A stretch of DNA of 64,000 nt from Myxococcales bacterium (GCA_023248635.1 JAHFED010000015.1:25177-89176), one strand, 5' to 3'; positions 1,192 to 63,190 are shown, counted from the first letter of the stretch. Notes: generated by a model from the sequence alone, not told the origin. Numbers and translations are program-made.

Positions 1192-1806
1192 TCACTTGCC
1201 GGAGTAGTACTCAACGATCAACTGAGGATCAACATCAACAGGGACAGAATCTCGTTCGGGGATCATCTTGACGTTGACGACGCCGCCGTCGCTGACCTCG
1301 AGATAATCCGGAACTTTGAGATTGTTGGGATCCTTGATTGCCTCGGCAATCTTCGCCTTCATTTTGCTGGTTTCACGCAAGGTGATGACATTGCCGGCTC
1401 GCACCTGGAAGCTGGCAATGTCGACCTTCTTGCCGTTCACGGTGACGTGACCGTGCATCACGATCTGACGGGCCGCAGCCATCGAGGGCGCAAAGCCGGC
1501 GCGAAAGACGACGTTGTCGAGGCGGCGCTCGAGGAGCGAGAGGAGCATGTGGCCGGAGTTGCCCTTGCCGGCGAAGGCCTGGGCGACGTAGCGGCGCAGC
1601 TGGCGCTCGGAGAGGCCGTAGTGGAAGCGCAGCTTCTGCTTCTCCATCAGGCGCAGGGCGTAGTCCGAGAGCTTCTTGCGCTTGGTGGGGCCGTGCTGCC
1701 CGGGTGGGTAGGGGCGGCGCAGATCGGGATCGGTGCGCATCAAGCCCGGCAGGGGGGTGCCGAGGCGGCGGATGATTCTCAGTCGCGGACCAGTGTAGCG
1801 AGCCAT
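1192..1806 (-). CDS. rpsD: 30S ribosomal protein S4
   Basis: This 204-aa protein begins MARYTGPRLRIIRRLG and shows S4 conservation throughout (...LSERQLRRYV..., RLDNVVFRAGFA, S4 RNA-binding domain). The gene is monocistronic here. Confidence 0.95.
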   Translation of the reverse strand: MARYTGPRLRIIRRLGTPLPGLMRTDPDLRRPYPPGQHGPTKRKKLSDYALRLMEKQKLRFHYGLSERQLRRYVAQAFAGKGNSGHMLLSLLERRLDNVVFRAGFAPSMAAARQIVMHGHVTVNGKKVDIASFQVRAGNVITLRETSKMKAKIAEAIKDPNNLKVPDYLEVSDGGVVNVKMIPERDSVPVDVDPQLIVEYYSGK

Positions 1807-2006
1807 GAAACAGTTCCTTCGTCGTCGCTGTCGCCGTGGACCTTTGAAAAACTCGCTCCAACCGGAGCCAGCGGACCAGCGGCTTGTCTGGGGACAGCCA
1901 TCAAGACCCCGCAGCCGTAGCCAAACGTCGACGAGGGATCAACGCCTCATTGCTCAGGCGGCCAAATCCCAGTGACGTCGTCGCCCCCCCGTGTCATGCA
2001 GAAACG

Positions 2007-7056: not shown

Positions 7057-8514
7057 TCAGCTGCAGAGTTGCTCGTAGAGCTCGACGTAGCGGCCCACGC
7101 GGTGCTTCCATCCCAATGGCAGACCCATGCCGTTGCGCTGGATGGTGCGCCAACGCGCGCGATCGGCGCCCGTGCCGCTGCCCCAGACCTCGAGCGCGCG
7201 GCGCAGCGCCCAGCTCAGGCCAGCGTCGTCGAAGTGCTCAAAGACGAAGCCCGTGCCCTGCTGGGTCTTGGCGTCGAAATTCCACACGGTGTCGGCGAGG
7301 CCACCGGTCTTGTGCACCACCGGCACCGTGCCGTAGCGCAAGCTGTACATCTGGTTGAGACCGCAGGGCTCGTAGCGCGAGGGCATCAAGAACAAGTCGG
7401 CGCCGGCTTCGATGAGATGGGCGCGAGCCTCGTTGAAGGCCGAGTCGTAAGCGACCTTGTGGGGGAAGGCCATCGCGAGGGTGCGAAAGAACTCCTCGTA
7501 AGCAGGCTCGCCTTTGCCGAGGACAACGAGCTGGCAGCGCTGGTGCCGCAAGAGCGAGGGCAACACGCGCACGCAGAGGTCGAGGCCCTTTTGCCAGACC
7601 AAGCGCGACACCAATCCAAAGACGGGAACCTCGGGCCGGTAGGGCAGGCGCACCGACGCCATCAGCGCTTGCTTGCACACCTCTTTGCCGTCGAGGTCGT
7701 CGGCGGAGAAGGCCTGGGGGATGTGATGGTCGGCGGCGGGGTTCCACTCGTTTTCGTCGATGCCGTTGAGGATGCCCGTCAACACATCCCGGCGCGCGCG
7801 CAGCACGGGATCGAGGCGCAGTCCCTGCTCGGGGGTCTGGATTTCTTTGGCGTAGGTGGGGCTGACGGTGGTGATGGCGTCGGCGTGCAGCAGCCCCGTC
7901 AGCAGATAGCCGAGGCGGCCCGCGCGCAGCTCGTCTTGGTGAAAGAGATGGGCCGAATCCCCCAGGCCAGTCTCAGGCAACACCTCGGCCGGGAAGGTCC
8001 CCTGGTGTCCCAGGTTGTGCAGCGTGATCACGGTCTTGGTGCGCGCGAACAAGCGATCCCAGGCGAAGCGCGTCTTCAGCAGCAGCGGCACCAGCGCCGT
8101 CTGCCAATCGTTGACGTGCAGGATGTCTGGGGAAAAGCCGGTGTGCTGGCAGGCCTTGAACGCAGCCCAAGACAGAACCGCAAAGCGCAGATGTTCGTCG
8201 GGGGAAGAGCCGTAGAGCGAAGGTCGGTCAAAGAGAGGCGGACAACGCACGAAGTACACGGGCATGCGCGTGCCCGGCATAGGTGCGGTGTGCAGCGACA
8301 CGCGCACGGTGTGACGACCCAAGGACAGCGCGACGTCGTCGGCGACCTCGCTGAACACCACGCCGGGCAGCCGCACGCGCGGGTACATCGGCATCACCAC
8401 CCTGACGTCGTGACCCAAAGCACCGAGCTGACGGGGCAGGGCGGCGGAGACGTCACCGAGACCTCCGCTCTTGGCGAAGGGTGCGACTTCGGACGAGACA
8501 AAAAGCACGTTCAT
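7057..8514 (-). CDS. glgA: Glycogen synthase (ADP-glucose transglucosylase), GT5
   Basis: MNVLFVSSEVAPFAKSGGLGDV... contains the KxGGL motif. The 485-aa length and overall conservation fit GlgA. Confidence 0.95.
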   Translation of the reverse strand: MNVLFVSSEVAPFAKSGGLGDVSAALPRQLGALGHDVRVVMPMYPRVRLPGVVFSEVADDVALSLGRHTVRVSLHTAPMPGTRMPVYFVRCPPLFDRPSLYGSSPDEHLRFAVLSWAAFKACQHTGFSPDILHVNDWQTALVPLLLKTRFAWDRLFARTKTVITLHNLGHQGTFPAEVLPETGLGDSAHLFHQDELRAGRLGYLLTGLLHADAITTVSPTYAKEIQTPEQGLRLDPVLRARRDVLTGILNGIDENEWNPAADHHIPQAFSADDLDGKEVCKQALMASVRLPYRPEVPVFGLVSRLVWQKGLDLCVRVLPSLLRHQRCQLVVLGKGEPAYEEFFRTLAMAFPHKVAYDSAFNEARAHLIEAGADLFLMPSRYEPCGLNQMYSLRYGTVPVVHKTGGLADTVWNFDAKTQQGTGFVFEHFDDAGLSWALRRALEVWGSGTGADRARWRTIQRNGMGLPLGWKHRVGRYVELYEQLCS

Positions 8515-8576
8515 CGGTCCGCACGATAGCGGGGGAAAACGACAAGAGTGTGTCGATCGCGAACCAATGTTCGCCG

Positions 8577-9047
8577 TCAGACGATCGGCATGCAGTCCAA
8601 GATGGCCTCCTCGAGCTGGTCGACGTCGACGGGCTTGTCGAAGAAGCGGGTGCGTGGAACGCGGGCGATGCGGGCCCGCAGCGCCGGGTCTCCGAAGGCC
8701 GAGATCATGATGATCGGCGTCAGCATGCCGGCGTTGCGCAGGCCGACGACGACGTTGAGCGTGTTGAAGCCCGGCATGCGCACGTCAGTGACGATGACGT
8801 CGGGGGCGCTGCCCGGTTTGGCCACCATGCTGTCGGCGAGCACCTCGAGCAGCTCGAAGCCGTTGCGCACCGTCGAGACCACGAAGCCGTCGCGCTCAAA
8901 GAGGGCAGCCAAAGAAGAGCGCAGGTCGTCGTCGTCTTCGGCGAGCAAGACCCGCGGTCGGTGGCTGGGCCATGTGTCCAGATGGAGGCAGCCTTCGTCG
9001 TCGTCGACGGGGGGATCGAGGGGGATGGACGAGTGGTGGCGTTGCAT
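8577..9047 (-). CDS. Single-domain response regulator (receiver only)
   Basis: RVLLAEDDDDLR...VIVTDVRMPGF...IIMISAFGD...KPVDVDQL is a REC domain. It is paralogous to the RECs at 12339-12773 and at the C-terminus of the sigma-54 activator. Confidence 0.8.
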   Translation of the reverse strand: MQRHHSSIPLDPPVDDDEGCLHLDTWPSHRPRVLLAEDDDDLRSSLAALFERDGFVVSTVRNGFELLEVLADSMVAKPGSAPDVIVTDVRMPGFNTLNVVVGLRNAGMLTPIIMISAFGDPALRARIARVPRTRFFDKPVDVDQLEEAILDCMPIV

Positions 9048-9204
9048 GTTGACGCTCCTGTGGTGGTGGCGTCATCGTCGACTCAAGGCCCGTGCCGCGC
9101 TCAGCCCTCTTCGGGGTCGGCGCGCTGCTGTTGACGTCGATGGAGACGCAATCGGTGCGCGCAGGCCGCCGGAGAAGCGCAACATCTGCGGATCGTGGGG
9201 CCGC

Positions 9205-12338: not shown

Positions 12339-12773
12339 ATGCAAGTACAAAGCGACCCTGGCTCTGGATTCCGAATCGCGCTCGCCGAAGACGATCACGA
12401 CCTGCGCACGGGTCTGGCGGCCTTGCTCGAGGCCGATGGCCATCAGGTGGATGCACTGGCTTCGGGAGCGGTGCTCATCGAACATCTGACGGCAGCCATC
12501 CTCGACGTCGATGCCGGTCGGCCTGATGCCATCGTCACCGACGTGCGCATGCCGGGGGTGAGCGGGCTCAGCATCGTCGAAGGCCTGCGGGCCAATGGCT
12601 GGGATGCCCCCATCATCATCATCTCGGCCTTCGCCGACCAAGAGCTGCGAGAGCGCGTGAACCGCCTCGGAGGCGCCGTACTCTTCGCCAAGCCCTTCGA
12701 CCCCGATGAGCTCGGACGCACGCTGAGCCAGATGCTGCGCGGCCACCGCGCTTGCGCCGCGGGAGCCGTGTGA
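12339..12773 (+). CDS. Single-domain response regulator (receiver only)
   Basis: RIALAEDDHDLRTGLAALLEADGH...AIVTDVRMPGVSG...IIIISAFADQ...KPFDPDEL is a REC domain. I placed the start at the internal ATG 12339 (MQVQSD). Confidence 0.75.
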   Translation: MQVQSDPGSGFRIALAEDDHDLRTGLAALLEADGHQVDALASGAVLIEHLTAAILDVDAGRPDAIVTDVRMPGVSGLSIVEGLRANGWDAPIIIISAFADQELRERVNRLGGAVLFAKPFDPDELGRTLSQMLRGHRACAAGAV

Positions 12774-16631: not shown

Positions 16632-17336
16632 ATGAAGAGCCTGTGGTTCACCCTCGTCGCGGCGTCGATCGGCGCTGGTTGCCACTCCGTCGACGGCGCC
16701 CCGCTCCCGCCTCCTGCCGTGCCGCTGGTCACCGAGCTCGACGTCGACGGCCTCCTGGGCTGGTTTGGTGCGCCCGTCCCCGGCCAACCGGCGCTGATGC
16801 CCATCGACGACGCCCGCCGGGTGGTCGAGGATTTCAAAAGCGGCACAGCGTTTCGCGCTTTCCCCGCCGGCAACGCCGAGGAAACGTGGTTCGGCAAGAG
16901 CTACCTCGTCTACGCCGACGGAACGAGCAGCGAGGCCTTCCAATTCCTGCGCTTCAAGAAAGGGCGCGGCCTCGCAGCCGGCGTCGACGCCGCCGCGGTC
17001 TTGCCCTGGCTCGCCTGCACCAACGGCCTTCAGACCGACGGGGGCAGCGAAGAGGCCGACGCCGACGACCTCTTCACGGCCGCCGAGAATGGCGCAGCGC
17101 CGCGGCCCGAGAGCGGGGCCCTGCGCTACGTCCGCGAAGCCGAATGCGTCGACGGCTACGGCGCCATCGTCGCGAGCGCCGGCGTGTCGCAGGTGGTGGT
17201 GCAGGCGGACCGGCGCTGGATGCGAATGAGCGGCAAGCGCTTGCTCCTCATCCAGCGAATCGTGCAGTTCTCGGGCTTGGCGAAGAACCCCAGTCACATC
17301 GCTGGGCGCTACTCGGAACTCTGGAAGCTGCCTTGA
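16632..17336 (+). CDS. Hypothetical lipoprotein
   Basis: MKSLWFTLVAASIGAGC gives a signal peptide plus lipobox Cys. I placed the start at the internal ATG 16632. Confidence 0.55.
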   Translation: MKSLWFTLVAASIGAGCHSVDGAPLPPPAVPLVTELDVDGLLGWFGAPVPGQPALMPIDDARRVVEDFKSGTAFRAFPAGNAEETWFGKSYLVYADGTSSEAFQFLRFKKGRGLAAGVDAAAVLPWLACTNGLQTDGGSEEADADDLFTAAENGAAPRPESGALRYVREAECVDGYGAIVASAGVSQVVVQADRRWMRMSGKRLLLIQRIVQFSGLAKNPSHIAGRYSELWKLP

Positions 17337-17363
17337 GCGCGGGCCCCGCTGGCAAGCAGAAGG

Positions 17364-17456
17364 GAATTCACCGACAGCGCTGCGCGTGTCGGTGAATTGT
17401 CTACAGGTTCATCGCCTGGCGGCGATGAATCGTCTACCGGTTCATCGCCGGTGGCG
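17364..17456. repeat. Double-hairpin palindromic repeat element, copy 1 (one unit plus a partial unit)
   Basis: The sequence GAATTCACCGACA-GCGCTGCGCG-TGTCGGTGAATT (hairpin A), GTCTACAGG, then TTCATCGCC-TGG-GGCGATGAA (hairpin B) is near-identical to copies at 22842, 30804 and 43087. Confidence 0.9.
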
Positions 17457-17473
17457 CAGCGAGATCGCCAGCG

Positions 17474-18676
17474 TCAGCCAAAGGGTCGCAGCACGCCGGT
17501 GGCGACGGCGACGGCGACGACGGCGACGAGGCCCAGCAGGGGGCCCACCGCGAGCACTGCGGCAGGAGCAGGCCGCGGCTGTTTGCCGAAAAGAAAGAGC
17601 GCCAAGCGAACGACGGGCAATGCCGACAACGCCACCCCCACCATCAGACCCACACTGAGCCAGGGCGTCTCGCACACCCTCGCCAGGCTTTGCCGCACCG
17701 CAAAACCCAGGGTGGGCGGCAAACCGCAGGCCTGGGCCGCAGCAAACACAAGCAGACCACAGCGCCAGGGATGACGACGACCCCAGCCCGAAGCGTCCTC
17801 CCACGTCGCCACCGAGCGCGAAAACACCGGAAGGGCTGCGGCGCCGACGGCCAGCCCCAAGGAACCAAGCGCCGCCGTAAAGCTCGCTGCCACGAGGTCG
17901 ACGCCGAGGCGCGCCGCCGCCAGGGGCAAGAGAGCCTGTTGCACCACCAGCACGCCGAGCAGCCGGCGCAAGGACACCTGACCCAGGGCCACCAAAGGCA
18001 AGCCAAAGAGGCCCAGAGCAAGGGCGACGTCGACGGCTCCGTGCTGCCGGCCGACCAGTGCCCCCAAAGGGGGCCCCAGCGCCACCAGGGCCAAGGGAGC
18101 GCTCACAGCCATCGCCGCCGGCGGAGCACCCTGAAAGAGGTCGACCCGGATCCCCTGCAGCGGCGGCAGACCAAGAACCAGGGCGAGGGCCGCCAACAGA
18201 CACGCTCCGCCGGCGGAGCCCTCGACCACCAGCCCCAAGCCCGCCAACAACACCGCCATCAGCCCCAGCAGGCACGCCTTGGCAGCGGCTTCGGCTTCGG
18301 CGCTGACAGGGGTCGGCGGCGACGTCGTCGGCACCCGCATGGCCAACCCCGCGCTCGCCACCGTCCACAGCGCGATCCAGGCCAGCAGGGCGGCCGGCGA
18401 TGGGGTGAGACCCAGCTTCAAGGTTCCCGATCCGAGCACCAGCGCCAGCGCGGCCCGTTCACCGAGCAGGCCCGGCCCCTCGATGAGAGCAAACACCACC
18501 AGTGCGCCAGCAACGGCCAGCGACGTCGGCGTCAAGGCCCACAGCGCCGCAGCGCAGGCGGCGACGACGACGACGACGACCTGGGGCAGGCGTGCGACCC
18601 GCTTGCGCCCGCCAAGGCCTGCACCAGTGGCCTCCAAGCCCAGCGCGACGAGGGCGGCCAGCAGCAGCACGCCCAT
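17474..18676 (-). CDS. Proton-pumping antiporter-like membrane subunit (NuoN/MrpD-like)
   Basis: It is polytopic (>10 predicted TM helices) and Ala/Leu/Gly-rich like the complex I antiporter subunits. I placed the start at ATG 18676, which lies 2 nt after the upstream gene's stop. The N-terminal 298 aa of the six-frame ORF overlap the upstream gene and look non-coding. Confidence 0.6.
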   Translation of the reverse strand: MGVLLLAALVALGLEATGAGLGGRKRVARLPQVVVVVVAACAAALWALTPTSLAVAGALVVFALIEGPGLLGERAALALVLGSGTLKLGLTPSPAALLAWIALWTVASAGLAMRVPTTSPPTPVSAEAEAAAKACLLGLMAVLLAGLGLVVEGSAGGACLLAALALVLGLPPLQGIRVDLFQGAPPAAMAVSAPLALVALGPPLGALVGRQHGAVDVALALGLFGLPLVALGQVSLRRLLGVLVVQQALLPLAAARLGVDLVAASFTAALGSLGLAVGAAALPVFSRSVATWEDASGWGRRHPWRCGLLVFAAAQACGLPPTLGFAVRQSLARVCETPWLSVGLMVGVALSALPVVRLALFLFGKQPRPAPAAVLAVGPLLGLVAVVAVAVATGVLRPFG

Positions 18677-18678
18677 GC

Positions 18679-20049
18679 TCACGACGCCACCCGCAACACC
18701 GCGTCGTGAGCCAGCGACGCCGCCACCAAGGCCGCCAGGGGCAGGAGCAGACGAATCCCCTGCTGCAACGACACACTGACGGTCTGTTTCAAGCTCGGTC
18801 GCGGCAGGCCGCCCACCCGCAACACCAAGCCGCTGATCCCCACCGCTGCCAACAAGAGGGAGGAAGCGCAGACGCCAGCGGCGACGCCGGTCTCGGGGCC
18901 TTTTCTCAGCAGGCCGGCGAGCGCAGGCCACAGGCCGGTGGCGGTGCCGGGCCCCGGCAGTCCGCACAGCGCCCAGAGGGACATTGGCAAGAGCAGGCCC
19001 AACGAGGGCGCGACCTGCAGCAAGCCCCTGAGCTCGGTGGTGCGCCGGGTCTCGAGGCGCCGCTCCACGGCCTCGACCAGCATCAAGGCCCAAGAAGCGC
19101 TGAATCCCGTCAGCGCCGCCAAGCCCACAGCGACCGGTCCAGCACCGCAGATGGCGACGAGGGCGGTCACCGATCCCAGGGCCCCCAACAGGTGCGCCAC
19201 CATGCGGCGGAGGTCGCGCTCGGCCATCACCAGCGCTCCGCCGATGGCACAACCCACCGCCAATACGCCGGCCAGGGAGGGGATGACCCGTGCCAGAGCT
19301 TCGGCGCCGCCGCCCACCCGCTCCAGGAGGGCAACGGATCGGCACAGCAACACAGCCCCCACCGGCGCCACCATCCCGCCCATCAGACAGGCTGCTGCCA
19401 CGGGGGACTGTTCGAGGGCCGGCAAGGCCCACAGCCCGTGGGGACCCGCCGCCAACCGGACCAGCCCCGGCCCCAGCAGCGCAACCACGACCCAGGCACC
19501 CCCTCCGGTCACCGGCCCCTGCTGGACCAGCACCAAAGCTCCAAGGGCTGCGCCGTCCAACAACAGCCACAGTGCGGCTGCCCTCAAGGTGACAGAGCCG
19601 CGCTCGGGCCCCCCAAAAAGGGCCACCAAGGCAAAGAAGGGAACAGCGGCCACCATCGCAACGGCCGTGGCGGCGACGACGTCGTCGACCAGCACGGCCA
19701 CCAGCGATCCGCTCTCGGCCAGCAAGATGGCGGCGACGTAGGCCTGGAGTCCGTGGCTCACCCGCGGTGCTCCCGCGCGCAGGGCCATCGGCGTCACCCC
19801 GAGGATCACCACCGCCGCCGGCAGGGCCACGCCGGAAAAGCGCAGCGAAGCCGCAACAGGCAGGACGAGCGTGGCGCCAGGAGCCTCAAAGAGCAGGGCC
19901 AGGCCGGGCACCAGGGCCAACAGGCCGCTGACGACGCCGACGGCGCGGAGGGTCAAGCGGTCGTCGGCGGGGACCACCAGCGCGAAGGCGCCCCCCAGCA
20001 GGGGCAGCAACACCATCAGCGCGATGAGCAGGTCAGGCGCCAGGCGCAT
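18679..20049 (-). CDS. NuoM/MrpD-like antiporter subunit
   Basis: The 456-aa polytopic membrane protein has the architecture of the NADH-quinone oxidoreductase chain M / Mrp D family. Confidence 0.65.
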   Translation of the reverse strand: MRLAPDLLIALMVLLPLLGGAFALVVPADDRLTLRAVGVVSGLLALVPGLALLFEAPGATLVLPVAASLRFSGVALPAAVVILGVTPMALRAGAPRVSHGLQAYVAAILLAESGSLVAVLVDDVVAATAVAMVAAVPFFALVALFGGPERGSVTLRAAALWLLLDGAALGALVLVQQGPVTGGGAWVVVALLGPGLVRLAAGPHGLWALPALEQSPVAAACLMGGMVAPVGAVLLCRSVALLERVGGGAEALARVIPSLAGVLAVGCAIGGALVMAERDLRRMVAHLLGALGSVTALVAICGAGPVAVGLAALTGFSASWALMLVEAVERRLETRRTTELRGLLQVAPSLGLLLPMSLWALCGLPGPGTATGLWPALAGLLRKGPETGVAAGVCASSLLLAAVGISGLVLRVGGLPRPSLKQTVSVSLQQGIRLLLPLAALVAASLAHDAVLRVAS

Positions 20050-20052
20050 GTC

Positions 20053-22095
20053 TTAGCCCGTCCCCGGCGTACGGCCGAGCCAGAGCAGGCCGGCGGCAGC
20101 CAACAAAGCGAGGAAGAAAGCCTGCTGAGCGCCACCGTTTTGCAGCAGCCGCAGCCCAAAGGCCGTGACCGCCGCAAAGGCAGCCGGCAGGCGGTGCAGC
20201 ACGACAGACAAGACCGCCGGCACGAGGTTGACCGCCAAGAGGCGCGACAGGCGCTCCACGCTTTCTTGGACGGACCGAGCCACGAGGCTGTCCTGCCCGG
20301 CGAGGCGCGCCAACCAGCGGGCCAGCGCAGCGACCGCGGTTTCGTCGGCGCCTTTTTCTCCCGCAAGCACGCGCCCCCGACCCCGGCGCCACCACAAGGC
20401 CGAGGTCAGCCAGGGCAGCAGCCCAAGCCCCAGCACGAGCAGCGCGAAGGTGGCCTGGCTCAGAGGCGGCGGCGCCTGGGCGGCGATAAAGAGCTCTCGC
20501 ACCGGCGTGCTTTGGACCAAGCTCGGCCGCACAAAGCTCGTCAGCACTGGGTCCAAGCTGAGCTCCCAAGGCAAGAGCTCCAAGAGCCCCTGGGGCACCG
20601 CCAGCAGCGTCAGCGCCGACGCCGCCAGAGCAACGACCCAGGGTGCCAACGTCGACGCCAGACCCGACTCGACGACGTCCGCAGTGGTTGCTTCGGGGCG
20701 CGCTCCAGTGAAGACCAGGTGCAGCGCGCGCCAGCCCGCCAGTCCCACCAGCACCACGCCGAGGACGACGGCGACGACGACGCCCGCGGGGATCCGGGTC
20801 GAAAAGACCGCGGCCTGCACAGCACGGTCGACGACGACGAAGCCGGCGAAGGGGGGGAGGGCGGCGATGCCGGCGGTGAGCAGCAGGCGCGCGGAGTGAG
20901 TGCGGGGGAGCAGGGGCTCGAGGCCTCCCAAGGCCCGGGGATCGCGGGACCCGCTGCGCTCGACCACTTCGGCGAAGGCCCACGGCAGGCCCAAGCCGGC
21001 GCTCATGAGGAAGAGGCCGGCGAAGGCGACACCGACGACGTCTTGGGTGCCGGCGCAGATGGCCATGAGGCCCGAAAAGGCCGCGAGCAGATGGGCGTCG
21101 AGGCGCAGCAGGTCACGCCCGGCCAGGGCGAGCACCCCAGCCCCCAGCAAGGTGAGGGCGCCAACGACGACCAGGCCGTCTTGCACTTCGGGAGACAGCG
21201 CGATGATGGGGTGCAGCCGCAGCAGGAGGATCGCCGCGCAGCCCTGCAGGCCGAGCCCGTGGACCAGGCCCAAGAGCGGGGCGGGGGTGTGGGGATCGGC
21301 GGTGGCGTCGCGCAGCCAGGGCCAGCACAACCAGCCGGCGCGGGAGGCAACGCCGGTCACCAGGCCGATGCCAGCGATGAACCACAGGGTGCGGTGGGCG
21401 AAGCCGTCGAAGGCGCCGCTGCTCAGGCGCTCCCAGGGGGACAGCGCGTCGGCTGCGAGGAGTTGGGTGAAGCTGAGATCCGCCGTCGACGACAACGACG
21501 CCGTCAACGCCGCCAGGGCGACCAGCAGCCCGGCGTCGCCGATGCGCTGGACGCCAAAGAGCTGGATCAGGCCTCCGCCGCCGCCGGCGAGCCCCAAGGC
21601 AAGCGCAACGACGGCCCCTGACAGCGCGGCCGCGGCGACGACGTGCGCGGGGTGGTCCGCCAAGACCACCACCAACACGCTGGCTTCCAGCAGCAGCCCC
21701 GCACCCACCGCCGACGGCGTCACACCGCTGTGGCGCCGCGCCCATCCCAGGGCCAGTCCGACGTTGCCTGCGGCGCCGATGAGGGCCGTGGCCAGCAGCA
21801 GGGGCGCGGTGAGGGGCTCCAGCACCAGCGGAAGGAAGGGGCCCAGGCCGGCGGGTGCGAGATCGGCGCACAAACGGGCACCGACGAAGCCGCCGACGCC
21901 GACATAGCGAAAGCCACCGACCTCGGCCAGAGTGAGCAGGCACGACCCAGCCAGCACGGCGACGACGACGACGACGACGACGACCCCCAGGCTCCGGGTC
22001 CACCTCGGTGCGCGGGCGCTCAAGAACAAGCCGGCTGCCGCCACCAGCAAGAGGGTGGGGAGCAGCGCCAGGGTGGGAAAGGGGAGCTCCTTCAC
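20053..22095 (-). CDS. NuoL/MrpA-like antiporter subunit
   Basis: It is about 680 aa from the GTG at 22095, which overlaps the upstream stop as GTGA. It is polytopic with a long C-terminal extension. The upstream 134 codons of the six-frame ORF are Arg-rich junk. Confidence 0.6.
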   Translation of the reverse strand: MKELPFPTLALLPTLLLVAAAGLFLSARAPRWTRSLGVVVVVVVVAVLAGSCLLTLAEVGGFRYVGVGGFVGARLCADLAPAGLGPFLPLVLEPLTAPLLLATALIGAAGNVGLALGWARRHSGVTPSAVGAGLLLEASVLVVVLADHPAHVVAAAALSGAVVALALGLAGGGGGLIQLFGVQRIGDAGLLVALAALTASLSSTADLSFTQLLAADALSPWERLSSGAFDGFAHRTLWFIAGIGLVTGVASRAGWLCWPWLRDATADPHTPAPLLGLVHGLGLQGCAAILLLRLHPIIALSPEVQDGLVVVGALTLLGAGVLALAGRDLLRLDAHLLAAFSGLMAICAGTQDVVGVAFAGLFLMSAGLGLPWAFAEVVERSGSRDPRALGGLEPLLPRTHSARLLLTAGIAALPPFAGFVVVDRAVQAAVFSTRIPAGVVVAVVLGVVLVGLAGWRALHLVFTGARPEATTADVVESGLASTLAPWVVALAASALTLLAVPQGLLELLPWELSLDPVLTSFVRPSLVQSTPVRELFIAAQAPPPLSQATFALLVLGLGLLPWLTSALWWRRGRGRVLAGEKGADETAVAALARWLARLAGQDSLVARSVQESVERLSRLLAVNLVPAVLSVVLHRLPAAFAAVTAFGLRLLQNGGAQQAFFLALLAAAGLLWLGRTPGTG

Positions 22096-22373
22096 CCGCG
22101 CAGCTCGCGCAACTCGTCGACATGGTCCGCACCCCGGCGGCGGTGAACAGCGACGGCTGCCCCCACGACGACCAGAGCAACGGCCGCGCCGGCAACCACC
22201 AACACGGCGGCGGCGGCGAGCTTGCCTTGGCTGCCCGCGGCGAGGGCCAGCCCCAAGGTGCCCAACTGCGCGCCCAGGGCCACAGCGAGGAGGGAACGCC
22301 GCAAGAGCAGCATGGCCAAGCCCAGGCCCAGCAAGAGCAGTCCGGTGCCGACGCCGACGCCGACGACGTTCAT
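22092..22373 (-). CDS. NuoK/MrpC-like small membrane subunit
   Basis: The 94-aa protein has three TM helices and an ...LLLRRSLLAVALGAQL... motif resembling NuoK/MnhC. It shows ATGA start-stop overlap with the upstream gene and GTGA overlap with the downstream gene. Confidence 0.55.
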   Translation of the reverse strand: MNVVGVGVGTGLLLLGLGLAMLLLRRSLLAVALGAQLGTLGLALAAGSQGKLAAAAVLVVAGAAVALVVVGAAVAVHRRRGADHVDELRELRG

Positions 22374-22825
22374 GCGGCCTCTCGTCGTCGAGCAAGCAGG
22401 AGCACCGCGGGTCCCGCCGACGCCAAGGCCAACAGGGCCAGCAGGGCCGCGTCGCTGGTCGGGCTGCTCGACGTCGTGCGGGACACGACGGCAAGAGGCA
22501 GCGGCCACAGGACGAAGCCCGTCAGGACCACGGGGAGCAGCATCAGCAAACGCCACGGCCGCAGCGTGCGCGGGGGGCGGCCATCGAGATCGACGACGAC
22601 GACACCGGCAGCGACGGGCAGCAGCAGGCCCATGCCTCCCACCAAGAGCAAGATCGCGAGCGCTGGGCCTTGGGTGGCGAGTCCCAACCCCGCACTGCCG
22701 ACGACGACGACCAACACCGAGACCACAGTGCTGCTCAGGCGCGAGGTGCACAGGGCGCCGATGCCCCCGAGGAGGGTGATGAGCGCGACGACGACGACGG
22801 CGGAGAGGGGCACGGCTTCGGGCAC
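22370..22825 (-). CDS. Small polytopic membrane subunit (NuoJ/MnhB-like)
   Basis: It is about 150 aa with 3-4 hydrophobic helices and is the first gene of the five-gene antiporter-like operon. I infer a GTG start, which is immediately downstream of repeat copy 2. Confidence 0.45.
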   Translation of the reverse strand: MPEAVPLSAVVVVALITLLGGIGALCTSRLSSTVVSVLVVVVGSAGLGLATQGPALAILLLVGGMGLLLPVAAGVVVVDLDGRPPRTLRPWRLLMLLPVVLTGFVLWPLPLAVVSRTTSSSPTSDAALLALLALASAGPAVLLLARRREAA

Positions 22826-22841
22826 CGAGCCTTGTACCGGA

Positions 22842-22908
22842 AATTCATCGCCGCCAGGCGATGAACGTGTAGACGATTCACCGACACGCGAAGCGTGTCG
22901 GTGAATTT
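22842..22908. repeat. Double-hairpin palindromic repeat element, copy 2 (inverted orientation)
   Basis: AATTCATCGCC-GCC-AGGCGATGAA CGTGTAGAC GATTCACCGACACGCGAAGCGTGTCGGTGAATT is the reverse complement of the unit at 17364 and sits 17 bp upstream of the antiporter-like operon. Confidence 0.9.
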
Positions 22909-23128
22909 CGCCCGTTGGAGGACATCGCCGGCGGCGCGGCCCTCCGGGGTCAACAATCGCTTGCTGTCGTCGCGACTCGAGCTTTTGCCCGAGCACCGTG
23001 CTTGAGGTTGGATGACGACGAAGAAGCACAGCCCGAGGTCGTTGGCGATCGGGTGTTCTGACGTCCGTCGTGCGTCCGGTGGCGGTGGCTTCGAGGCTGG
23101 GCTGATCTTGGGCTGCGTGGAGGACCTC

Positions 23129-24151
<1,023 letters not shown>

Positions 24152-30793: not shown

Positions 30794-31016
30794 GGCGGTT
30801 TCCGAATTCACCGACAGCGCTTCGCGTGTCGGTGAATTGTCTACAGGTTCATCGCCTGGCGGCGATGAATTGATTGACCTTCGCCAGGCTTGGTCCTTTC
30901 CTCGATGCCTTCGTTGCGTGCTCGGTGAAGCCGGAGAGGCTGCCCCTGCGCCGCGCCTCGGCCTCGAGGAAATTCCCGGCGTCGGGCTCGATCAATCAAC
31001 AAGGAAACCGCCCTAG
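30790..31016. mobile_element. MITE-like element: 13-bp terminal inverted repeats (TAGGGCGGTTTCC ... GGAAACCGCCCTA) around a 226-bp segment that contains one double-hairpin repeat unit (30804-30872)
   Basis: A perfect 13-bp inverted repeat is read directly from the sequence. It exactly fills the gap between two convergent genes. Both gene stop codons (TAG) are supplied by the repeat termini. Confidence 0.55.
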
Positions 31017-43086: not shown

Positions 43087-43344
43087 GAATTCACCGACAG
43101 CGCTTCGCGTGTCGGTGAATTGTCTACACGTTCATCGCCTGGCGGCGATGAATTCACCGACGGCTTCGCGTGTCGGTGAATTGTCTACGGGTTCATCGCC
43201 TGGCGGCGATGAATTCACCGACAGCGCTTCGCGTGTCGGTGAATTGTCTACACGTTCATCGCCTGGCGGCGATGAATTCACCGACGGCGCTTCGCGTGTC
43301 GGTGAATTGTCTACGGGTTCATCGCCTGGCGGCGATGAATTCTC
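43087..43344. repeat. Tandem array of four double-hairpin palindromic repeat units (63/61/63/63 bp), copy 4
   Basis: (GAATTCACCGACAGCGCTTCGCGTGTCGGTGAATTGTCTACACGTTCATCGCCTGGCGGCGAT) repeats four times head-to-tail with no unique spacers. Alternating unit variants indicate duplication of a 2-unit block. Confidence 0.95.
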
Positions 43345-43358
43345 ATAGCGTCGCAGCC

Positions 43359-49459: not shown

Positions 49460-49546
49460 GGCCGCAAGCGTCCACCCGGTCGGTGCACGCCGGGACAGAG
49501 GGCGACGTGCTTTGACGTGCCTCTCGGTGGCGCGAGACCCTGGATC

Positions 49547-52165
49547 ATGATCAGGTCCTTCGTCGTCGTCCTCGCGTTGACGTTCATCGGTCTCGCTGGC
49601 TGTTCGGCTGCCGAGCTGGCAGGGGAGGGCGAAGAAGGCGAAGGCGAAGGCGAAGGAGAAGGCGAAGGCGAAGGTGAGGGAGAAGGCGAAGGCGAAGGCG
49701 AAGGCGAAGGTGAGGGAGAAGGCGAAGGAGAAGGCGAAGGCGAAGGCGAAGGCGAGGGCGAAGGCGAAGGCGAGGGCGAGGGCGAAGGAGAAGGAGAAGG
49801 AGAAGGTGAGGGAGAAGGTGAGGGAGAAGGTGAGGGAGAAGGAGAAGGAGAAGGAGAAGGAGAAGGAGAAGGGGAAGGCGCATCGCAGCAAGAGGACTGC
49901 GACAACGGGGACGACGACGACGGCGATGGCAACGTCGACTGTGAGGACCCAGACTGCCTCCCCACAGCACCCTGCAATGCCTGCGGCAACGGCATCCTCA
50001 ACGCTGGGGAGCAGTGTGACGACGGCAACCTCCTCGGCGGGGACAATTGCTCCCCCACCTGCTCGCTGTGCGGCAACGGCCACACCGATCCCGATGAGGA
50101 GTGCGACGACGGCAACGGCATCAACGGCGACGGGTGCGACGTCGACTGTGTCATCAACTTTTGCGGAAACAACATCGTCGATCAGGGCGAGGAGTGCGAC
50201 GACGGCGGCGCCAACTCCGACGTCCTCGCCGACGCCTGCCGCTCCTCCTGCGTCTTGGCGTTCTGCGGCGACGGCACCATCGACGCGGCTGAGCTCTGCG
50301 ACGTTGGGCAGGGCGACGGCGGCATCCCCTGCGAAAACGACTGCACCTTCACCTTCTGTGGCAACCACATCATCGACCCCGGCGAAGAATGCGACGACGG
50401 CGACAACGTCGACGGCGACGACTGCCGCTTCAACTGCTTGTTCGAGGTCTGCGGCGACGGCTTTCAAAACACCGGGGAGGCGTGTGACGACGGCGACACC
50501 CTGAGCGAGGATGGCTGCTCCTCTGGCTGCCTGGTGGAATTCTGCAGCGACGGGATCACGCAAGCGGGCCTGGGTGAGGAGTGCGACGACGGCGACATCA
50601 ACAGCGGCGACGGCTGCCGCAGCGATTGCACGGCCGAGGTCTGCGGCGACGGGATCACAGACGCCGACGAGGAGTGCGACGACGGCAACGACCAGAGCCA
50701 GGATGGCTGCTCGTCGATCTGCCTGGTGGAGAGCTGCGGTGACGGCGTCGTGCAACCCGGCCGGGGCGAGGAGTGCGACGACGGGAACTCGAACTCCAAC
50801 CTCGGAGCGTGCCTCATCAATTGCAAGCAGGCTGCGTGCGGCGACGACTTCGTTCACCTCGGTGTCGAAGGGTGCGACGACGGCAACACCGACAACGGCG
50901 ACGGCTGCGATGACGACTGCGTCAGCTCGCGCGTCCTCGCCATCGAAGCCGGCTTCGAGCATACCTGCGCGCTGCTGCCCCCGTCGCCGACGGTTCCGTC
51001 GATCCAGCGGGTGCGCTGCTGGGGACGCGGCACCAGCGGACGACTCGGCTATCCAGCCAATGGAACCAACGCCATCGGCGCCACGAACACGGTCGCAAGC
51101 TTTGGGGACGTCAATCTAGGGGGGGACGCCGTACAGGTCGCCACCGGCCGCGACCACACCTGCGCGCTCTTGGCCGATCACACCGTCCGCTGCTGGGGCT
51201 TGGGGGCAGGAGGTCAATTGGGCTACGGCGCCACCGACAACCTCGGCGACAACGAGCTCCCGGCCCTTGCGGGGGCGGTGCCCATCGGCGGACCCGTCGT
51301 GCAAATCGCCGCTGGTGCCCAGCACACCTGCGCCGTGCTCGAGAACCAAAAGGTGCGCTGCTGGGGACAGTCGGTCGAAGGCGAGCTCGGCTACGGCAAC
51401 CAAAACCCCGTGGGCAACACTGCGCAGTCGCGGCTGACAGAGCTCCCGGCGCCCGACGTCAACGTCGGCGGCGACGTCGTGCAAATCGCCGCCGGTGACT
51501 TTCACACCTGCGCCATCCGCGACACCGGCACGGTGGTTTGCTGGGGCTTCGGCGGCGACGGTCAGCTGGGCTATGGAAACACGTCTACCGTTGGCGCTCT
51601 CGATGTCCCCGCCGCTCGCGAGGTCAACCTCGGGCCCGGCGCGGCAGCCATCCAGATTGTGGCCGGCTCCCGACACACCTGCGCGCTGCTCTTGGGGGGG
51701 GCGGTGCACTGTTGGGGATTGGGCGACAGCGGCCAGCTCGGCTACGGCAGCAACCTCGAGGTCGGCGACAACGAGACCCCTGCCGCCGCCGGCCCCGTCT
51801 CCATCTCCGCCACCGGGGCAAAGACGGTGCAAATCGCGGCCGGCGCTTCCCATACCTGCGCGCTCCTCGACACCGGCGAGGTGCGTTGCTGGGGTTTCGG
51901 AGCCAATGGACAACTGGGCAACTCGAGCAACGCCACCGTCAGCCTCGGTGGCCAACCACCCTCGGCGTTCGCTGTGGTCCCGCTCGGCGCCGACGTCGCG
52001 CAGATCACGGCCGGTGGTTTTCACACGTGCGCGCTCCTGGTGACCGGCAGGGTCGTCTGCTGGGGGAGCAGCAGCCAAGGTCAGCGCGGCTACGGCAACA
52101 CCACGACCATCGGCGACAACGTGAACCGCCCGCCCCAACTGGATGGCTTCGTGCCGGTGTACTGA
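49547..52165 (+). CDS. Lipoprotein: (Gly-Glu)n linker, multiple Myxococcus-type cysteine-rich (myxo-disulfide, TIGR02232-like) repeats, C-terminal RCC1/beta-propeller repeats
   Basis: [19 protein letters not shown] (lipobox) is followed by ~85 aa of (EG)n. About 12 repeats of ...CGNG/CGDG...EECDDGN...DGC...C... follow, then 7 or more repeats of HTCALL..G.VRCWG.G..GQLGYG (RCC1). Confidence 0.85.
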
Positions 52166-55702: not shown

Positions 55703-56500
55703 ATGCGCTCGTTGTTCGTCGTCGTCGTCGTCTTGCTTCTCGCCGCCTGTCCCCAACATCCCGACGAAGGAGGCTTTCCCGCCGAAGGGGAGCTCGGTGG
55801 CGAAGGCGAAGAGGGGGAAGGCGAAGAGGGGGAAGGCGAAGGCGAAGGCGAGGGCGAGGGCGAGGGCGAAGGCGAGGGCGAAGGACCGCAGCCGGGCTTC
55901 GGTGCGATCTCAGGTCCTTGTGGGGTGCTCGATGACGAGCTCAGCAGCCCGCTGCCCTTCTATCTCGATGAGACCAGCATCGACTTCGGCACCGATCCCT
56001 ACGACGACGCCGACCTGCTGCTGCTCACCGCTGGAGGCCAAGAGATGGTCTCTGACGACAACGCCGGCGGGAACTCTTTGCTCTCGGAGGTGTTTAGCTT
56101 CGAGTTCTTGGCGCGCTGTGAAGGTGCAACCTTGTTCAAGACCGAGACCGAAGTCGAATATACGGTGAAACAGACGAAGATCACCGATCTCGTGGTGCTC
56201 ATCGAAGGCGTACGCTACGGTGTCAGTGTGGTGCGCACTTTCGTGTTTCCCGAGGGCACGCCCTTGTCGTCCGAAGAAGCCACCCGCCGTCTCGAGGGAA
56301 AGCTCGACGACATCTTGGTCAGCAGCGCCAACGTCGCCGCCTCCGATGCCTGGGACAAGCAGATCCTGGCCGTCATCGCCAACGAACCGGAACACCTCGC
56401 GGTCTGGCGCGCTGCCTACGATGATCTCGATGATGAAACCCGCGCTGATACCATCGTTTATGTGATTCTGACCAACGGCGACGACGCCTTCCTTCACTGA
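55703..56500 (+). CDS. Lipoprotein with a (Gly-Glu)n linker
   Basis: MRSLFVVVVVLLLAAC (lipobox) is followed by [27 protein letters not shown] and a ~200-aa globular domain of unknown function. Confidence 0.6.
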   Translation: MRSLFVVVVVLLLAACPQHPDEGGFPAEGELGGEGEEGEGEEGEGEGEGEGEGEGEGEGEGPQPGFGAISGPCGVLDDELSSPLPFYLDETSIDFGTDPYDDADLLLLTAGGQEMVSDDNAGGNSLLSEVFSFEFLARCEGATLFKTETEVEYTVKQTKITDLVVLIEGVRYGVSVVRTFVFPEGTPLSSEEATRRLEGKLDDILVSSANVAASDAWDKQILAVIANEPEHLAVWRAAYDDLDDETRADTIVYVILTNGDDAFLH

Positions 56501-57134: not shown

Positions 57135-57222
57135 GCGATCTGCATAGCCAATTTTTGGCCGTGCCAACGGCCAAAACATCAGCACTTTGTGTCCCAAGCG
57201 CCAGTCGTGCGAACACAGCTTC

Positions 57223-58770
57223 ATGACGACGATGACGAACTACGGAAAACCCGCGAAGAAGGCGAAGAAGGTCACAGCCTTCCCCCGCTCGGCCGGGGTC
57301 TTGTTGCACCCGACCTCGCTCCCTTCACCTCATGGCATTGGCGACGTCGGCGCTGGCGCCCGGGCTTTTGTGGATTGGCTGGCCCATGCCGGCTGTCAAC
57401 GCTGGCAAATCTTGCCCCTGGTGCCCGTGGGCGAGAGCTGGTCGCCCTATGCGTCTTTGTCGGCGTTGGCCGGCAATCCGCTGCTCATCGACCTCGACAA
57501 CCTTGTCGTCCGCGGGCTGCTCACCAAAGAAGAGGTCGAGCCCAAGATCGCCTTCAACCGCGACAACGTCGACTGGGCCAGGGTGCCCGCCTTCAAGCAG
57601 TCGCGCATCGACACCGCTTGCGATCGCTTCGGCCAAACCAAGGCAGGCCAAGAGACGCTGGCGCGCTACCGCCACGAACAGCCTTGGGTCGACGACGACG
57701 CGCTCTTCATCGCCATCAGAAACGCCCACCAGGGCAAAGCGTGGTGGCAGTGGGAGGAGGGGCTTCAGGAGCGGGCGCCGGCGGCCATTGCCAAGGCCAG
57801 AAACGATCTCCGCACGCAAATCGAGAGACGAGTGCTCGAGCAGGCCCTCTTCGAAGAGCAGTGGCAAGGCCTGCGCACCTACGCTCGCAGCAAGGGCGTG
57901 AGCGTCATTGGCGATGCTCCCATCTATGTGGCCGACGACTCCGCCGACGTCTGGGCCCACCGCCAATTCTTCGAGCTCGACGACGAGGGGCAGCCGACGC
58001 ACGTCGCGGGTTGTCCGCCGGATGCCTTCTCCGAGACGGGCCAATGGTGGGGCTCGCCCCTGTACCGCTGGGACAAGATGAAGGCCGATGGCCACAAGTG
58101 GTGGATCGAGCGCATTCGCCGCAACCTGGCTCTCACCGACGTCGTGCGCATCGATCACTTCCGCGGCTTCGCTGGCTATTGGTCCATCCCAAAAAAGGCC
58201 AAAGACGCCCGCAGCGGATCCTGGCGCGAAGGACCAGGACAAGCCCTCTTCGACGACGTGCAAAAGGCCCTGGGCCCGAACTTGCCGATCATCGCCGAAG
58301 ACCTCGGCGTCATCACCGACGACGTCATCGCCCTGCGGGATCGGGTGGGCCTGCCGGGCATGAAGATCTTGCAGTTCGCTTTCGGCGCCGGCCACGACAA
58401 CGCCTACTTGCCCCACCACCACGTCGAAAACTGCGTGGTCTACACGGGCACCCACGACAACGACACGACACTGGGCTGGTGGAAGAACGAAGCCGATCAC
58501 GTGCGCGATCATGTGCGTCATTACTTGGGCCGCGACGGCAGCGACGTCGTCTGGGACTTCATCCGCTTGGCCCTGCTCTCGGTGGCCCACACCGCTGTCG
58601 TCCCTTTTCAAGACGTGCTCACCCTCGACTCAGGAGCCCGCTTGAACACGCCGGGCCTGGCCACCGGCAACTGGTCGTGGCGCGTGCGCCTCGATGCCTT
58701 CCATCCCAACCTGTCGATGCGCCTGCGCGGGCTGGTCGAGCTCGGTTACCGCCTGCCCCACGCGGGGTGA
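57223..58770 (+). CDS. malQ: 4-alpha-glucanotransferase (amylomaltase, GH77)
   Basis: ...[14 protein letters not shown]..., [20 protein letters not shown] and HDNDT are MalQ/GH77 hallmarks. The start may be 57187, 57223 or 57232. Confidence 0.9.
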
Positions 58771-58949
58771 GGCGTGCGCATCGATTTTCGACGGCTGCTG
58801 GCCTGCGCCGAGGCGGCGTTTCTGACCGTGCGGTCGGAGCCTGCCCGACGGCGTTGGGCCTTTCCCGAGACACGAGGGCTGGCGACGTTGGTGGGGGGCC
58901 ACTTGCCGGCCATAGATTCAAGGGCCCGTCACGAGCCCCTTGAGGTCCC

Positions 58950-61900: not shown

Positions 61901-62009
61901 GCTCCCACAGCTCAGCAGCGTCGGCGGTGCCGTGCTCATCTCCCAGGACGACGCCTTGACGAGCTGCACCGGAGCGCTGATCGTGAACGTGGGGGACTGC
62001 GTGCAATAG
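58950..62009 (+). CDS. Large repetitive lipoprotein: (GEGEGEGT)n linker, ~5 Cys-rich ~130-aa modules, C-terminal ~24-aa leucine-rich/receptor-L-domain-like repeats
   Basis: [16 protein letters not shown] (lipobox) is followed by ~110 aa of [11 protein letters not shown].... Repeated ...[15 protein letters not shown]...GCK.V.R.LDDGS.CT.DGC.E...[19 protein letters not shown]... modules follow, then ~20 L..L.LP.L..V.G.L.I..N..L repeats. Confidence 0.8.
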
Positions 62010-62058: not shown

Positions 62059-63126
62059 TCAGCGGATCGAAGTGCGACAGGACCCCACGTGCACACCGAC
62101 GGCGTCGACGTCGACGACGCGGGCGTTGGATTGCACGACGCTTTGCTGCACCTGCACGCCGCTCCTCACCGTGATGCCGGGGCCGATGACGGCAAAGGGT
62201 CCCAGGCGGGCGTTGGCTTCGACGACGCAGCCGGCATCGAGGAGCAGAGGGCCTCGCAGGGTCGCCTTCGCATGCACTCGCGCGCTGGGATGAACAAAGA
62301 CGCGCCCAGGACCTTCAACGAAGCGGGCAAAGGGCCGCAGATGGGCCAAGACGACGTCGCCGGAGAGCAGGAGCCGGTTGGCCTCCCACAGGCGTTCGGC
62401 AGTGCCTGTGTCGAAGAAGAAGCCGGCGTGATCGAAGGCCTGCAAGTGGGCGCCCTCGTTCAACCAGTGGGGATAGCCCTCCTTGTTGATGCAGCTCTCG
62501 GCACCGCGCACCGTCGGGAGCAGCGTGGCGTCGTCGACGTCGACGGCGGGGAGCACATCGAGGGCCCGGGGCTGCACGCAGTGCCAGCCACAGAACATGC
62601 GCTCGCGCGCCACCGCACCGCGCGCTTTGATGCGGCCAGCGAAGGTCAGGATGCGGTCGTCGACGTCGGTGCCGATGGCCCCGTAGGTCGCAGCATCGGG
62701 CACGGACTTGAGCACCAAGGTCGACAGGGGCGCGGGGTCGGTGCCCATCAAGCCAGCAACGTCGAGATCGATGAGGGCGTCGGCGTTGGCGATGAGCGCG
62801 CGTCCTCGGGCGGGCAGCACGTGGCGCAATCCCAGCAAGCCGCCGCCGGTGCCGAGTGCGGTGGGCTCATAGGTGTAGTGCAGGCGCAGCGGGGTGCCGT
62901 CAACGTCGACGGCGCTGCCGAGTGCTTGGGGAATCTGGGGATGCAGCCAGTGGGAATTGACGGCGACGTCGACGACGCCGGCATCTTTCAGCAGCTGCAG
63001 CGCGTGCACGATGAGCGGACGACCGCAGACCTCGAGCAGGGGCTTGGGCCTCTCGGCGGTCAAGGGCCGCAGGCGGGTGCCGAGACCAGCAGCGAGGATC
63101 CAGGCGACCGTGCCGTCGGAAGACAT
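62059..63126 (-). CDS. Sugar-phosphate nucleotidyltransferase (N-terminal NTP-transferase domain plus C-terminal left-handed beta-helix)
   Basis: The G-x-G-T-R-L motif WILAAGLGTRLRPLT is present, and the C-terminal hexapeptide-repeat region is Val/Gly-rich. I placed the start at the internal ATG 63126. Confidence 0.75.
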   Translation of the reverse strand: MSSDGTVAWILAAGLGTRLRPLTAERPKPLLEVCGRPLIVHALQLLKDAGVVDVAVNSHWLHPQIPQALGSAVDVDGTPLRLHYTYEPTALGTGGGLLGLRHVLPARGRALIANADALIDLDVAGLMGTDPAPLSTLVLKSVPDAATYGAIGTDVDDRILTFAGRIKARGAVARERMFCGWHCVQPRALDVLPAVDVDDATLLPTVRGAESCINKEGYPHWLNEGAHLQAFDHAGFFFDTGTAERLWEANRLLLSGDVVLAHLRPFARFVEGPGRVFVHPSARVHAKATLRGPLLLDAGCVVEANARLGPFAVIGPGITVRSGVQVQQSVVQSNARVVDVDAVGVHVGSCRTSIR

Positions 63127-63190
63127 GGACGGGATGTAGCCGACGTCGTCGTCGACGTCTCGCTCTTGTGCGCGCCGCGCCACCCTTTTT

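Follow-up and report, generated by a model that had tools for sequence, protein, structure and literature searches.

The window analysed here is a stretch of 64,000 nucleotides (nt) from a Myxococcales bacterium (GCA_023248635.1 JAHFED010000015.1:25177-89176), and its minus strand carries an operon of five membrane-protein genes (g1 to g5, together called the module) which descends from the distal membrane arm of respiratory complex I, made of NuoJ, NuoK, NuoN, NuoM and NuoL. Almost every residue of the canonical proton relay is missing from the module. We favour, with a probability of roughly 0.6, the reading that these genes encode a distal-arm-derived complex which would serve either as a scaffold of pseudo-antiporter type that does not pump or as a carrier whose substrate has changed. 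The homology, the gene order, the stand-alone context, the residue replacement and the purifying selection behind this reading are all observed in the data, and the function is proposed from sequence.

The five genes are contiguous and co-oriented, and gene calls made independently for the same metagenomic contig agree with our reading in genes and starts. They are given below with coordinates on the window.

g1, 22825..22370, minus strand: 151 amino acids (aa), GTG start; polytopic, NuoJ-like by position
g2, 22373..22092, minus strand: 93 aa; NuoK-like
g3, 22095..20053, minus strand: 680 aa; NuoL-like
g4, 20049..18679, minus strand: 456 aa; NuoM-like
g5, 18682 (GTG) or 18676 (ATG)..17474, minus strand: 402 or 400 aa; NuoN-like

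The junction of g1 and g2 is an ATGA overlap and that of g2 and g3 a GTGA overlap; g3 and g4 are separated by a 3-nt spacer (TAA-GAC-ATG), and g4 and g5 overlap by GTGA, or leave a 2-nt spacer if the ATG of g5 at 18676 is used. Such 4-nt overlaps between module genes are also present in 8 related loci. The original prediction had described five co-oriented, translationally coupled genes for three large antiporter-like subunits, a NuoK-like subunit and a small polytopic subunit in complex I order, and reading of the minus strand together with the independent gene calls bears this out; its account of the junctions holds for the ATGA and GTGA overlaps and fails for g3/g4, where the spacer of 2 nt is read as 3 nt.

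The GC content of the window is about 66%, and the plus strand has an AT skew of +0.4 between 18 and 22 kilobases (kb), which is expected from minus-strand genes with many hydrophobic codons. Alanine, leucine, glycine and valine make up 60-75% of the module proteins, and g1 to g5 summed have 9 lysines against 98 arginines in 1,782 residues. No sigma-70 promoter was detected in 17200-23200 (a range which takes in the 303-nt intergenic region between the divergent genes, 22826-23128, up to its final ~50 nt), and terminator-like sites in the same kind of scan stayed at background level. A possible AAGG ribosome-binding site was seen near the GTG start of g1, beside the second hairpin of the upstream repeat copy described below.

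The module derives from complex I rather than from the Mrp antiporters, as the J-K-L-M-N gene order and the pattern of best matches indicate. Single sequences are barely recognisable. In Pfam, g2 matched Oxidored_q2 (28.2 bits) and both g3 (~43 bits) and g4 (42.7 bits) matched Proton_antipo_M; g1 and g5 as single sequences had no match in Pfam or NCBIfam, NuoN included in the case of g5. The NCBIfam scores are far below the cutoffs, being 88 bits for g3 against the NuoL equivalog (cutoff 556), 31.7 for NuoM (cutoff 263.8) and 13 for NuoK (cutoffs 57-101). Family profiles built from relatives were compared with Protein Data Bank (PDB) chains, and the g3 profile found NuoL/ND5 best (8qby_L, 7e-28; MrpA, 5e-9), the g4 profile ND4/NuoM (1e-16; the MrpD-type chains 6cfw_H, whose deposited name is 'Monovalent cation/H+ antiporter subunit D', and 7qru_D at 2.5e-8 and 1.9e-6), the g5 profile NuoN (8e9g_N, 2e-13, with NdhB and ND2 matched too) and the g2 profile Escherichia coli NuoK (3rko_K, 4e-6; MrpC, 0.03). 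The Pfam scan gave no PF13244 or PF20501 match in g3. Of the two identities offered by the original prediction, NuoJ/K/L/M/N-like or MrpB/C/A/D/D-like, the first is thus upheld by far better profile scores and the second falls away.

Structure prediction points in the same direction for g3. Its AlphaFold2 model (predicted local distance difference test, pLDDT, 84.7; predicted template modelling score 0.84) ends with a 47-residue helix at 604-650 followed by a terminal helix at 656-674, and Foldseek placed full-length NuoL chains on top (E = 8e-19, TM-score 0.70-0.78, ~680 columns aligned). The L-like model keeps the NuoL fold with its long C-terminal helix and final anchor helix. The J-like family profile found nothing among the PDB chains even at E = 10, and the AlphaFold2 model of g1, made from an alignment of seven homologues, has five helices at pLDDT 61; its Foldseek search gave no significant match, and about 20 of the 50 sub-threshold matches listed were NuoJ/ND6/NdhG chains. 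The first genes of the distant loci L004, L020 and L021, which are positional homologues of g1, match Pfam Oxidored_q3, and a hidden Markov model of the core-family J-likes ranks these distant Pfam-positive proteins on top, yet at ~14 bits only.

The central result concerns the residues of the proton path. In canonical antiporter-like subunits these are an ion pair of GluTM5 and LysTM7 (TM, transmembrane helix), a central LysTM8, which is His in NuoL, and LysTM12, which is Glu in NuoM, and the E-channel adds E36 and E72 of NuoK (PMC10212512). The L-like proteins were aligned as 26 family members with 16 canonical NuoL. The lysine of the GKSAQ motif (LysTM7) is Arg in 26 of 26 members (Arg252 of g3) and Lys in 16 of 16 canonical sequences, the glutamate of WEGVG (GluTM5) is gone from all 26, the AYSTxSQLGYM and HAFFKALLF motifs are erased, and LysTM12 is lost with an apolar residue at the site; HisTM8 is present in 24 of the 26. 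Each sequence has either all of the canonical motifs or none of them, and intermediates are absent. Eleven sequences each were compared for the other subunits. LysTM7 of the M-like proteins is Arg throughout (11/11; Arg198 of g4), LysTM8 is Pro throughout (11/11), and GluTM5 and GluTM12 are apolar; in the N-like proteins LysTM12 is Arg (11/11; Arg330 of g5) and GluTM5, LysTM7 and LysTM8 are apolar. The K-like proteins have lost E72 in 11/11 and E36 in 10/11, and ten of the eleven have no acidic residue at all in TM2 or TM3, L020 alone keeping a Glu in TM2. The structural motifs NRxGD, the D-x-K/R-R loop and GGL are kept, and D333, R403, H459 and R570 are new conserved charged residues specific to the L-like family, as are E326 and E329 to the M-like one. 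A GC-driven drift from Lys to Arg was considered and ruled out, as the lysines are intact in NuoL of high-GC Mycobacterium and Nocardia. Both the extreme divergence of the subunits and the loss of almost every canonical relay residue were overlooked by the original prediction.

The family was traced by two kinds of search. A word-indexed search with g3 returned only 22 close homologues, below which the scores fall from 231 to 46 bits, where canonical NuoL and MrpA begin to come up. When 1.84 billion representatives were searched exhaustively with the profile, about 25 full-length members (positions 1-672; clusters at 50% identity) came out with scores from 921 to ~105 bits, and canonical NuoL lay at ~133-90 bits, mostly aligned to about position 500 only. 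All members with an organism name come from uncultured Myxococcota or 'Deltaproteobacteria' metagenome-assembled genomes (MAGs), and wherever a member's source is annotated it is a metagenome or a MAG. Scans of genomes and of metagenomes with highly family-specific peptide patterns brought up 4 and 6 loci. In the full-text literature no orphan nuoJKLMN family and no natural Lys-to-Arg relay replacement in antiporter-like subunits was found described, nor was anything relevant found on myxobacterial nuoL/M/N; the family is so far undescribed. Public records label its proteins as 'NADH:ubiquinone oxidoreductase subunit L/MnhA' or 'proton-conducting transporter', and metabolic reconstructions of these MAGs could wrongly credit them with complex I or Mrp function.

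Intact frames and gene overlaps persist down to 35% identity, and each of the five genes has a dN/dS (Nei-Gojobori) within 0.14-0.49 in three genome pairs, values which are probably overestimates because extreme GC at third codon positions constrains synonymous sites. The module genes are under purifying selection, and decay as pseudogenes was ruled out by the intact frames, the conserved overlaps and dN/dS below 0.5 in these pairs. The constraint is looser than on the neighbouring genes and the module evolves much faster, with an identity of 46-65% where the genes beside it reach 77-93% within the same pairs of genomes. Between L006 and L012, for example, Hsp70, DnaJ and a response-regulator-EAL protein are 93%, 88% and 87% identical and L, M and N 63-77%; between L005 and L006 the neighbours are 86% and 77% identical and the module 48-54%. 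We regard it as possible, though still tentative, that uncultured Myxococcota have kept a relay-dead copy of the distal arm across about 25 lineages diverged by more than 50%, in a new role, either as an alternative uncoupled arm by which the H+/e- stoichiometry of complex I is tuned or as a free-standing non-proton complex.

Pfam scans of 36 open reading frame (ORF) translations from the window, read together with the precomputed annotation of the contig that overlaps it, brought up no further nuo or mrp gene in these 64 kb, whether NuoA, NuoH, the peripheral arm and Q-module (NuoB, C, D, I) or MrpE/F/G. Twelve related loci were compared with it, making 13 contexts (the window, L004, L005, L006, L008/L010, L011, L012, L013, L014, L019, L020 and L021), of which L008, L010, L013 and L014 are short, with less than 300 nt upstream of g1. 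The five-gene J-K-L-M-N module is whole in 13 of 13 and has no additional small membrane genes in the operon, and the available flanks of the 12 related loci hold no other nuo gene (NuoA/H, Q-module), no mrp gene (MrpEFG), no hydrogenase and no DabA. The absence of NuoA, NuoH, peripheral-arm and MrpE/F/G genes, as originally predicted for the window, therefore extends to the relatives. A partner in relatives such as DUF2309/DabA, a hydrogenase or carbonic-anhydrase-like subunits had also been envisaged, and none came out of the locus tables; DabA (DUF2309) and CupA/B are likewise missing from every locus table and from the Pfam scans of the window, and no carbonic-anhydrase-like gene adjoins the module in the 13 contexts.

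The module lies between rpsP-rimM-trmD and rpoZ-rsmA-fpg in the deep-branching loci L004, L020 and L021, and L019 has the downstream rsmA-fpg pair in common with them. This conserved housekeeping location in distant members speaks for vertical inheritance, and we propose that the module is an old, vertically inherited paralogous family. Among the closer relatives an upstream response-regulator-EAL gene is common to L005, L006, L011 and L012, and an Hsp70/DnaJ pair follows directly 3' of the N-like gene in three of them; in L006 and L012 the pair runs in the direction of the module, and in L005 it is convergent. The recurrent neighbours are the following.

L005:14612-16771, L006:14860-17109, L012:12505-14813, 3' of the N-like gene: Hsp70-like gene (Pfam HSP70, MreB_Mbl), with a DnaJ gene
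L004:6535-7557, L019:8032-9102, L020:7832-8866, L021:7933-9036, divergent, upstream of the module: OmpA-family gene, 340-367 aa

In L019, L020 and L021 the OmpA-family gene is the immediate neighbour of the module, and in L004 a single gene lies between them; those of L004, L019 and L020 are 43-51% identical among themselves, and that of L021 was recognised from its Pfam OmpA match alone. It could be a functional partner or plain conserved synteny, and a non-proton function of the module may be linked to this envelope protein in the deep-branching members. As a universal partner it was rejected, the upstream 340-aa lipoprotein of the window being unrelated to it. The flanks of the window operon are common to none of the related loci, and neither the Hsp70/DnaJ pair nor the response-regulator-EAL gene is found near it.

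Taken as a mechanism, the favoured reading would run as follows. One operon would give a membrane complex on the scaffold of the distal arm, with NuoJ/K followed by N, M and L, and the products may assemble as a linear J/K-N-M-L arm in fixed stoichiometry, as is suggested by how tightly the genes are coupled in translation and by the C-terminal helix and anchor of NuoL type. The protonatable residues of the central axis have been systematically replaced, three key lysines by invariant arginines and the remaining Lys/Glu sites, like the glutamates of NuoK, mostly by apolar residues. Arginine is not a proton carrier. With the relay residues absent and arginine unable to shuttle protons, the complex would not translocate protons through the Lys/Glu relay, and the conserved buried arginines would probably preserve a structural charge where helices TM7 and TM12 are broken. 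The role would then be structural, that of a pseudo-antiporter, or would have shifted to another substrate.

Several points weigh against this reading. The loss of proton transfer is deduced from residue identity. Protonatable D187 and H279 are kept in L, where the family-specific D333 is added, and E326 and E329 are invariant in M, so that an alternative ion path may run through the remaining or new protonatable residues. The lateral-helix segment of the g3 model has a local pLDDT of only ~50-56, and g1 is but weakly suggested to be NuoJ by its position, the five-helix prediction and the Oxidored_q3 matches of distant relatives.

Two other explanations keep some standing, at a similarly low level. 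It is rather improbable that the module is an alternative non-pumping distal arm which docks on NuoA/H and on Q and N modules encoded elsewhere, and that it thereby gives an uncoupled or low-stoichiometry isoform of NADH:quinone oxidoreductase for redox balancing. J, K, N, M and L are the exact set needed in place of the canonical distal arm, NuoL's long C-terminal helix and the gene order are kept, and NuoJ and NuoK are still recognisable in distant members; however, in none of the 13 contexts does a nuoA/H or Q-module gene adjoin the module, and the J- and K-likes, which would form the interface and the E-channel, are the most degenerate of the subunits.

We give a comparably small chance to a functional, redox-independent ion transporter of Mrp type with rewired charged residues, moving cations and protons or something new to such carriers, an anion for instance. 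Stand-alone multisubunit antiporter-like complexes do exist, Mrp being one, and the three buried arginines, D187/H279 and D333 of L and E326/E329 of M are all under selection. The MrpE/F/G genes are absent, though, and similarity to Mrp is far weaker than to complex I; at the TM12 sites of the second half-channel L, M and N offer nothing protonatable except the Arg of N, and that residue, as noted above, carries no protons.

That the operon is only the split part of a canonical complex I, holding the sole nuoJKLMN genes of the genome and working normally with nuoA-I encoded elsewhere, was put forward in the original prediction as the simple outcome and is now very unlikely. It would account for the canonical gene order. 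The scenario is weakened by the divergence and the relay-residue loss, with GluTM5, LysTM7, LysTM8, Lys/GluTM12 and NuoK E36/E72 missing or replaced; the scores are 6- to 8-fold under the NCBIfam cutoffs with g5 matching nothing, and the module evolves much faster than its neighbours.

The operon is bracketed by copies of a palindromic repeat, and the inverted copies on both sides described in the original prediction were found where it had placed them. The unit is like the repetitive extragenic palindromic (REP) sequences, is ~63 nt long and has two hairpins, the first being ATTCACCGACA-(9-10 nt)-TGTCGGTGAAT and the second TTCATCGCC-(4 nt)-GGCGATGAA. It occurs at four intergenic sites in the window.

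17364-17456, unstranded: REP-like double hairpin 3' of g5, in the intergenic region between convergent genes; -55 kcal/mol as folded RNA, z = -5.0
22842-22908, unstranded: REP-like copy, inverted, in the divergent intergenic region, ending 17 nt before the g1 start; -46.6 kcal/mol, z = -5.7
30804-30881, unstranded: REP-like copy unrelated to the operon (pattern search and fold)
43087-43351, unstranded: four tandem REP-like units (~63 nt each) unrelated to the operon (pattern search)

The two flanking copies are in opposite orientation and their arms are 94% complementary. Hairpin 2 is present in 7 copies and hairpin 1 in at least 5, for a chance expectation of zero in either case, and the RNA folds of the copies range from -43 to -55 kcal/mol with z of -4 to -5.7. 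The element is confined to contigs of the same organism (L001, L002) and absent from the module locus of every relative; Rfam has no match anywhere in the window, this element included. The repeats behave as a strain-specific element of REP or bacterial interspersed mosaic element (BIME) type and are not part of the module. With the same element at two further sites in the window the bracketing of the operon is unremarkable, and the chance that at least one adjacent pair brackets a unit is roughly estimated at ~0.4, given ~25 inter-operon gaps. Most likely the flanking hairpins act as a transcript-end or insulating structure, and the second hairpin of the upstream copy (region 22826-22865) could lie in the 5' leader and so influence expression of the operon. 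The idea of a mobile cassette moved as a unit by these repeats, which the original prediction had raised, can practically be set aside: opposite-orientation copies do stand at both borders, and the flanks of the operon do differ from those of the closest relative L005 (71% identical), but the element is interspersed at two other intergenic sites, one of them the tandem array, and absent from the loci of relatives, the 36 scanned window ORFs and the contig annotation yielded neither a transposase nor an integrase domain and no REP-associated tyrosine transposase (RAYT) was seen in the 64 kb, and the conserved housekeeping locus of the deep-branching relatives indicates vertical descent.

Some further features of the window were recorded. 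DNA repeats with a period of 12 nt (and 18 nt) occur at 23192-23322, 49537-49995, 55754-55926 and 58937-59329. The first of them encodes, in the 340-aa protein at 23129-24151, an acidic Gly/Glu/Asp-rich stretch (EGEGDGDEGDAEGEGEG...) after an N-terminal hydrophobic segment and a Cys, and those at 49.5 kb and 58.9 kb lie near the 5' ends of two large ORFs, where they probably encode similar linkers. The ORF at 49460-52162 has about ten cysteine-rich repeats (C-G-N/D-G...E-x-C-D-D-G-N) at 49981-50933 and then six repeats of ~170-180 nt ending in '...HTCAL...V.CWG' at 51117-52065; we take these to resemble the Myxococcus cysteine-rich repeat and RCC1-like blades, which would fit a myxobacterial origin. 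The 1,021-aa ORF at 58944-62006 has four repeats of ~396 nt (59522-60934) and matches Pfam Dicty_CTDC at 4.6e-24.

An imperfect inverted repeat, 8612-8946 against 12380-12714, is 72-79% complementary over three segments and is explained by paralogous receiver-domain genes facing in opposite directions (8580-9071, minus strand; 12339-12773, plus strand). These genes flank a hybrid histidine kinase and belong with it to a two-component/sigma-54 activator cluster located just downstream of the operon. Glycogen and alpha-glucan genes are scattered over 7060-8784, 57148-58767 and 62062-63318, and comprise a starch-synthase-like glycosyltransferase, a 4-alpha-glucanotransferase (549 bits) and a GlgC-resembling NTP-transferase with hexapeptide domain. 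A MotA/TolQ/ExbB-family proton-channel gene at 1848-2729 adjoins the gene of ribosomal protein S4 (1195-1938, minus strand) and has no apparent link to the module.

Compared with known systems, the flanking repeat shares with REP and BIME elements that it is a short, GC-rich, imperfect palindrome which is strictly intergenic, recurs several times within 64 kb in both orientations, is sometimes tandem and forms stable hairpins, and it differs in being a 63-nt double hairpin with a sequence of its own that Rfam does not match. Complex I's membrane arm (E. coli 3RKO/7P61, Mycobacterium smegmatis 8E9G, Paracoccus denitrificans 8QBY) is the closest relative of the module itself: g2 to g5 match NuoK, L, M and N best, and the J-K-L-M-N order, the long C-terminal helix and anchor of L and the NRxGD, D-x-K/R-R and GGL motifs are common to both, whereas in the module the relay sites are lost, evolution is fast and no NuoA, NuoH or redox module is adjacent in any relative. 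Mrp (Mnh/Pha; 6Z16, 7QRU) is alike in being a stand-alone complex independent of redox chemistry, with antiporter-like subunits and a NuoK-like small subunit; unlike Mrp, the module has no MrpE/F/G, its L-like subunit does not have the C-terminal extension domains of MrpA, the similarity is much weaker, and the Lys/Glu sites which Mrp has in common with complex I are absent. DabB/DabA and the NdhD3/F3-CupA complex of the cyanobacterial NDH-1MS also reuse the antiporter-like scaffold beyond redox-driven pumping, but these keep the canonical charged residues and always have the gene of a dedicated soluble partner, and no such DabA, Cup or carbonic-anhydrase-like gene adjoins the module in the 13 contexts. 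To our knowledge the Lys/Glu chain is central to every current model of long-range pumping, and its necessity has been probed only by engineered point mutants. The module would stand beside them as a natural experiment in which the antiporter-like fold has lost proton hopping and selection has been retained, and it hints that complex I-like modules may serve ends other than energy conversion, for instance as scaffolds, as uncoupled isoforms or with new substrates.

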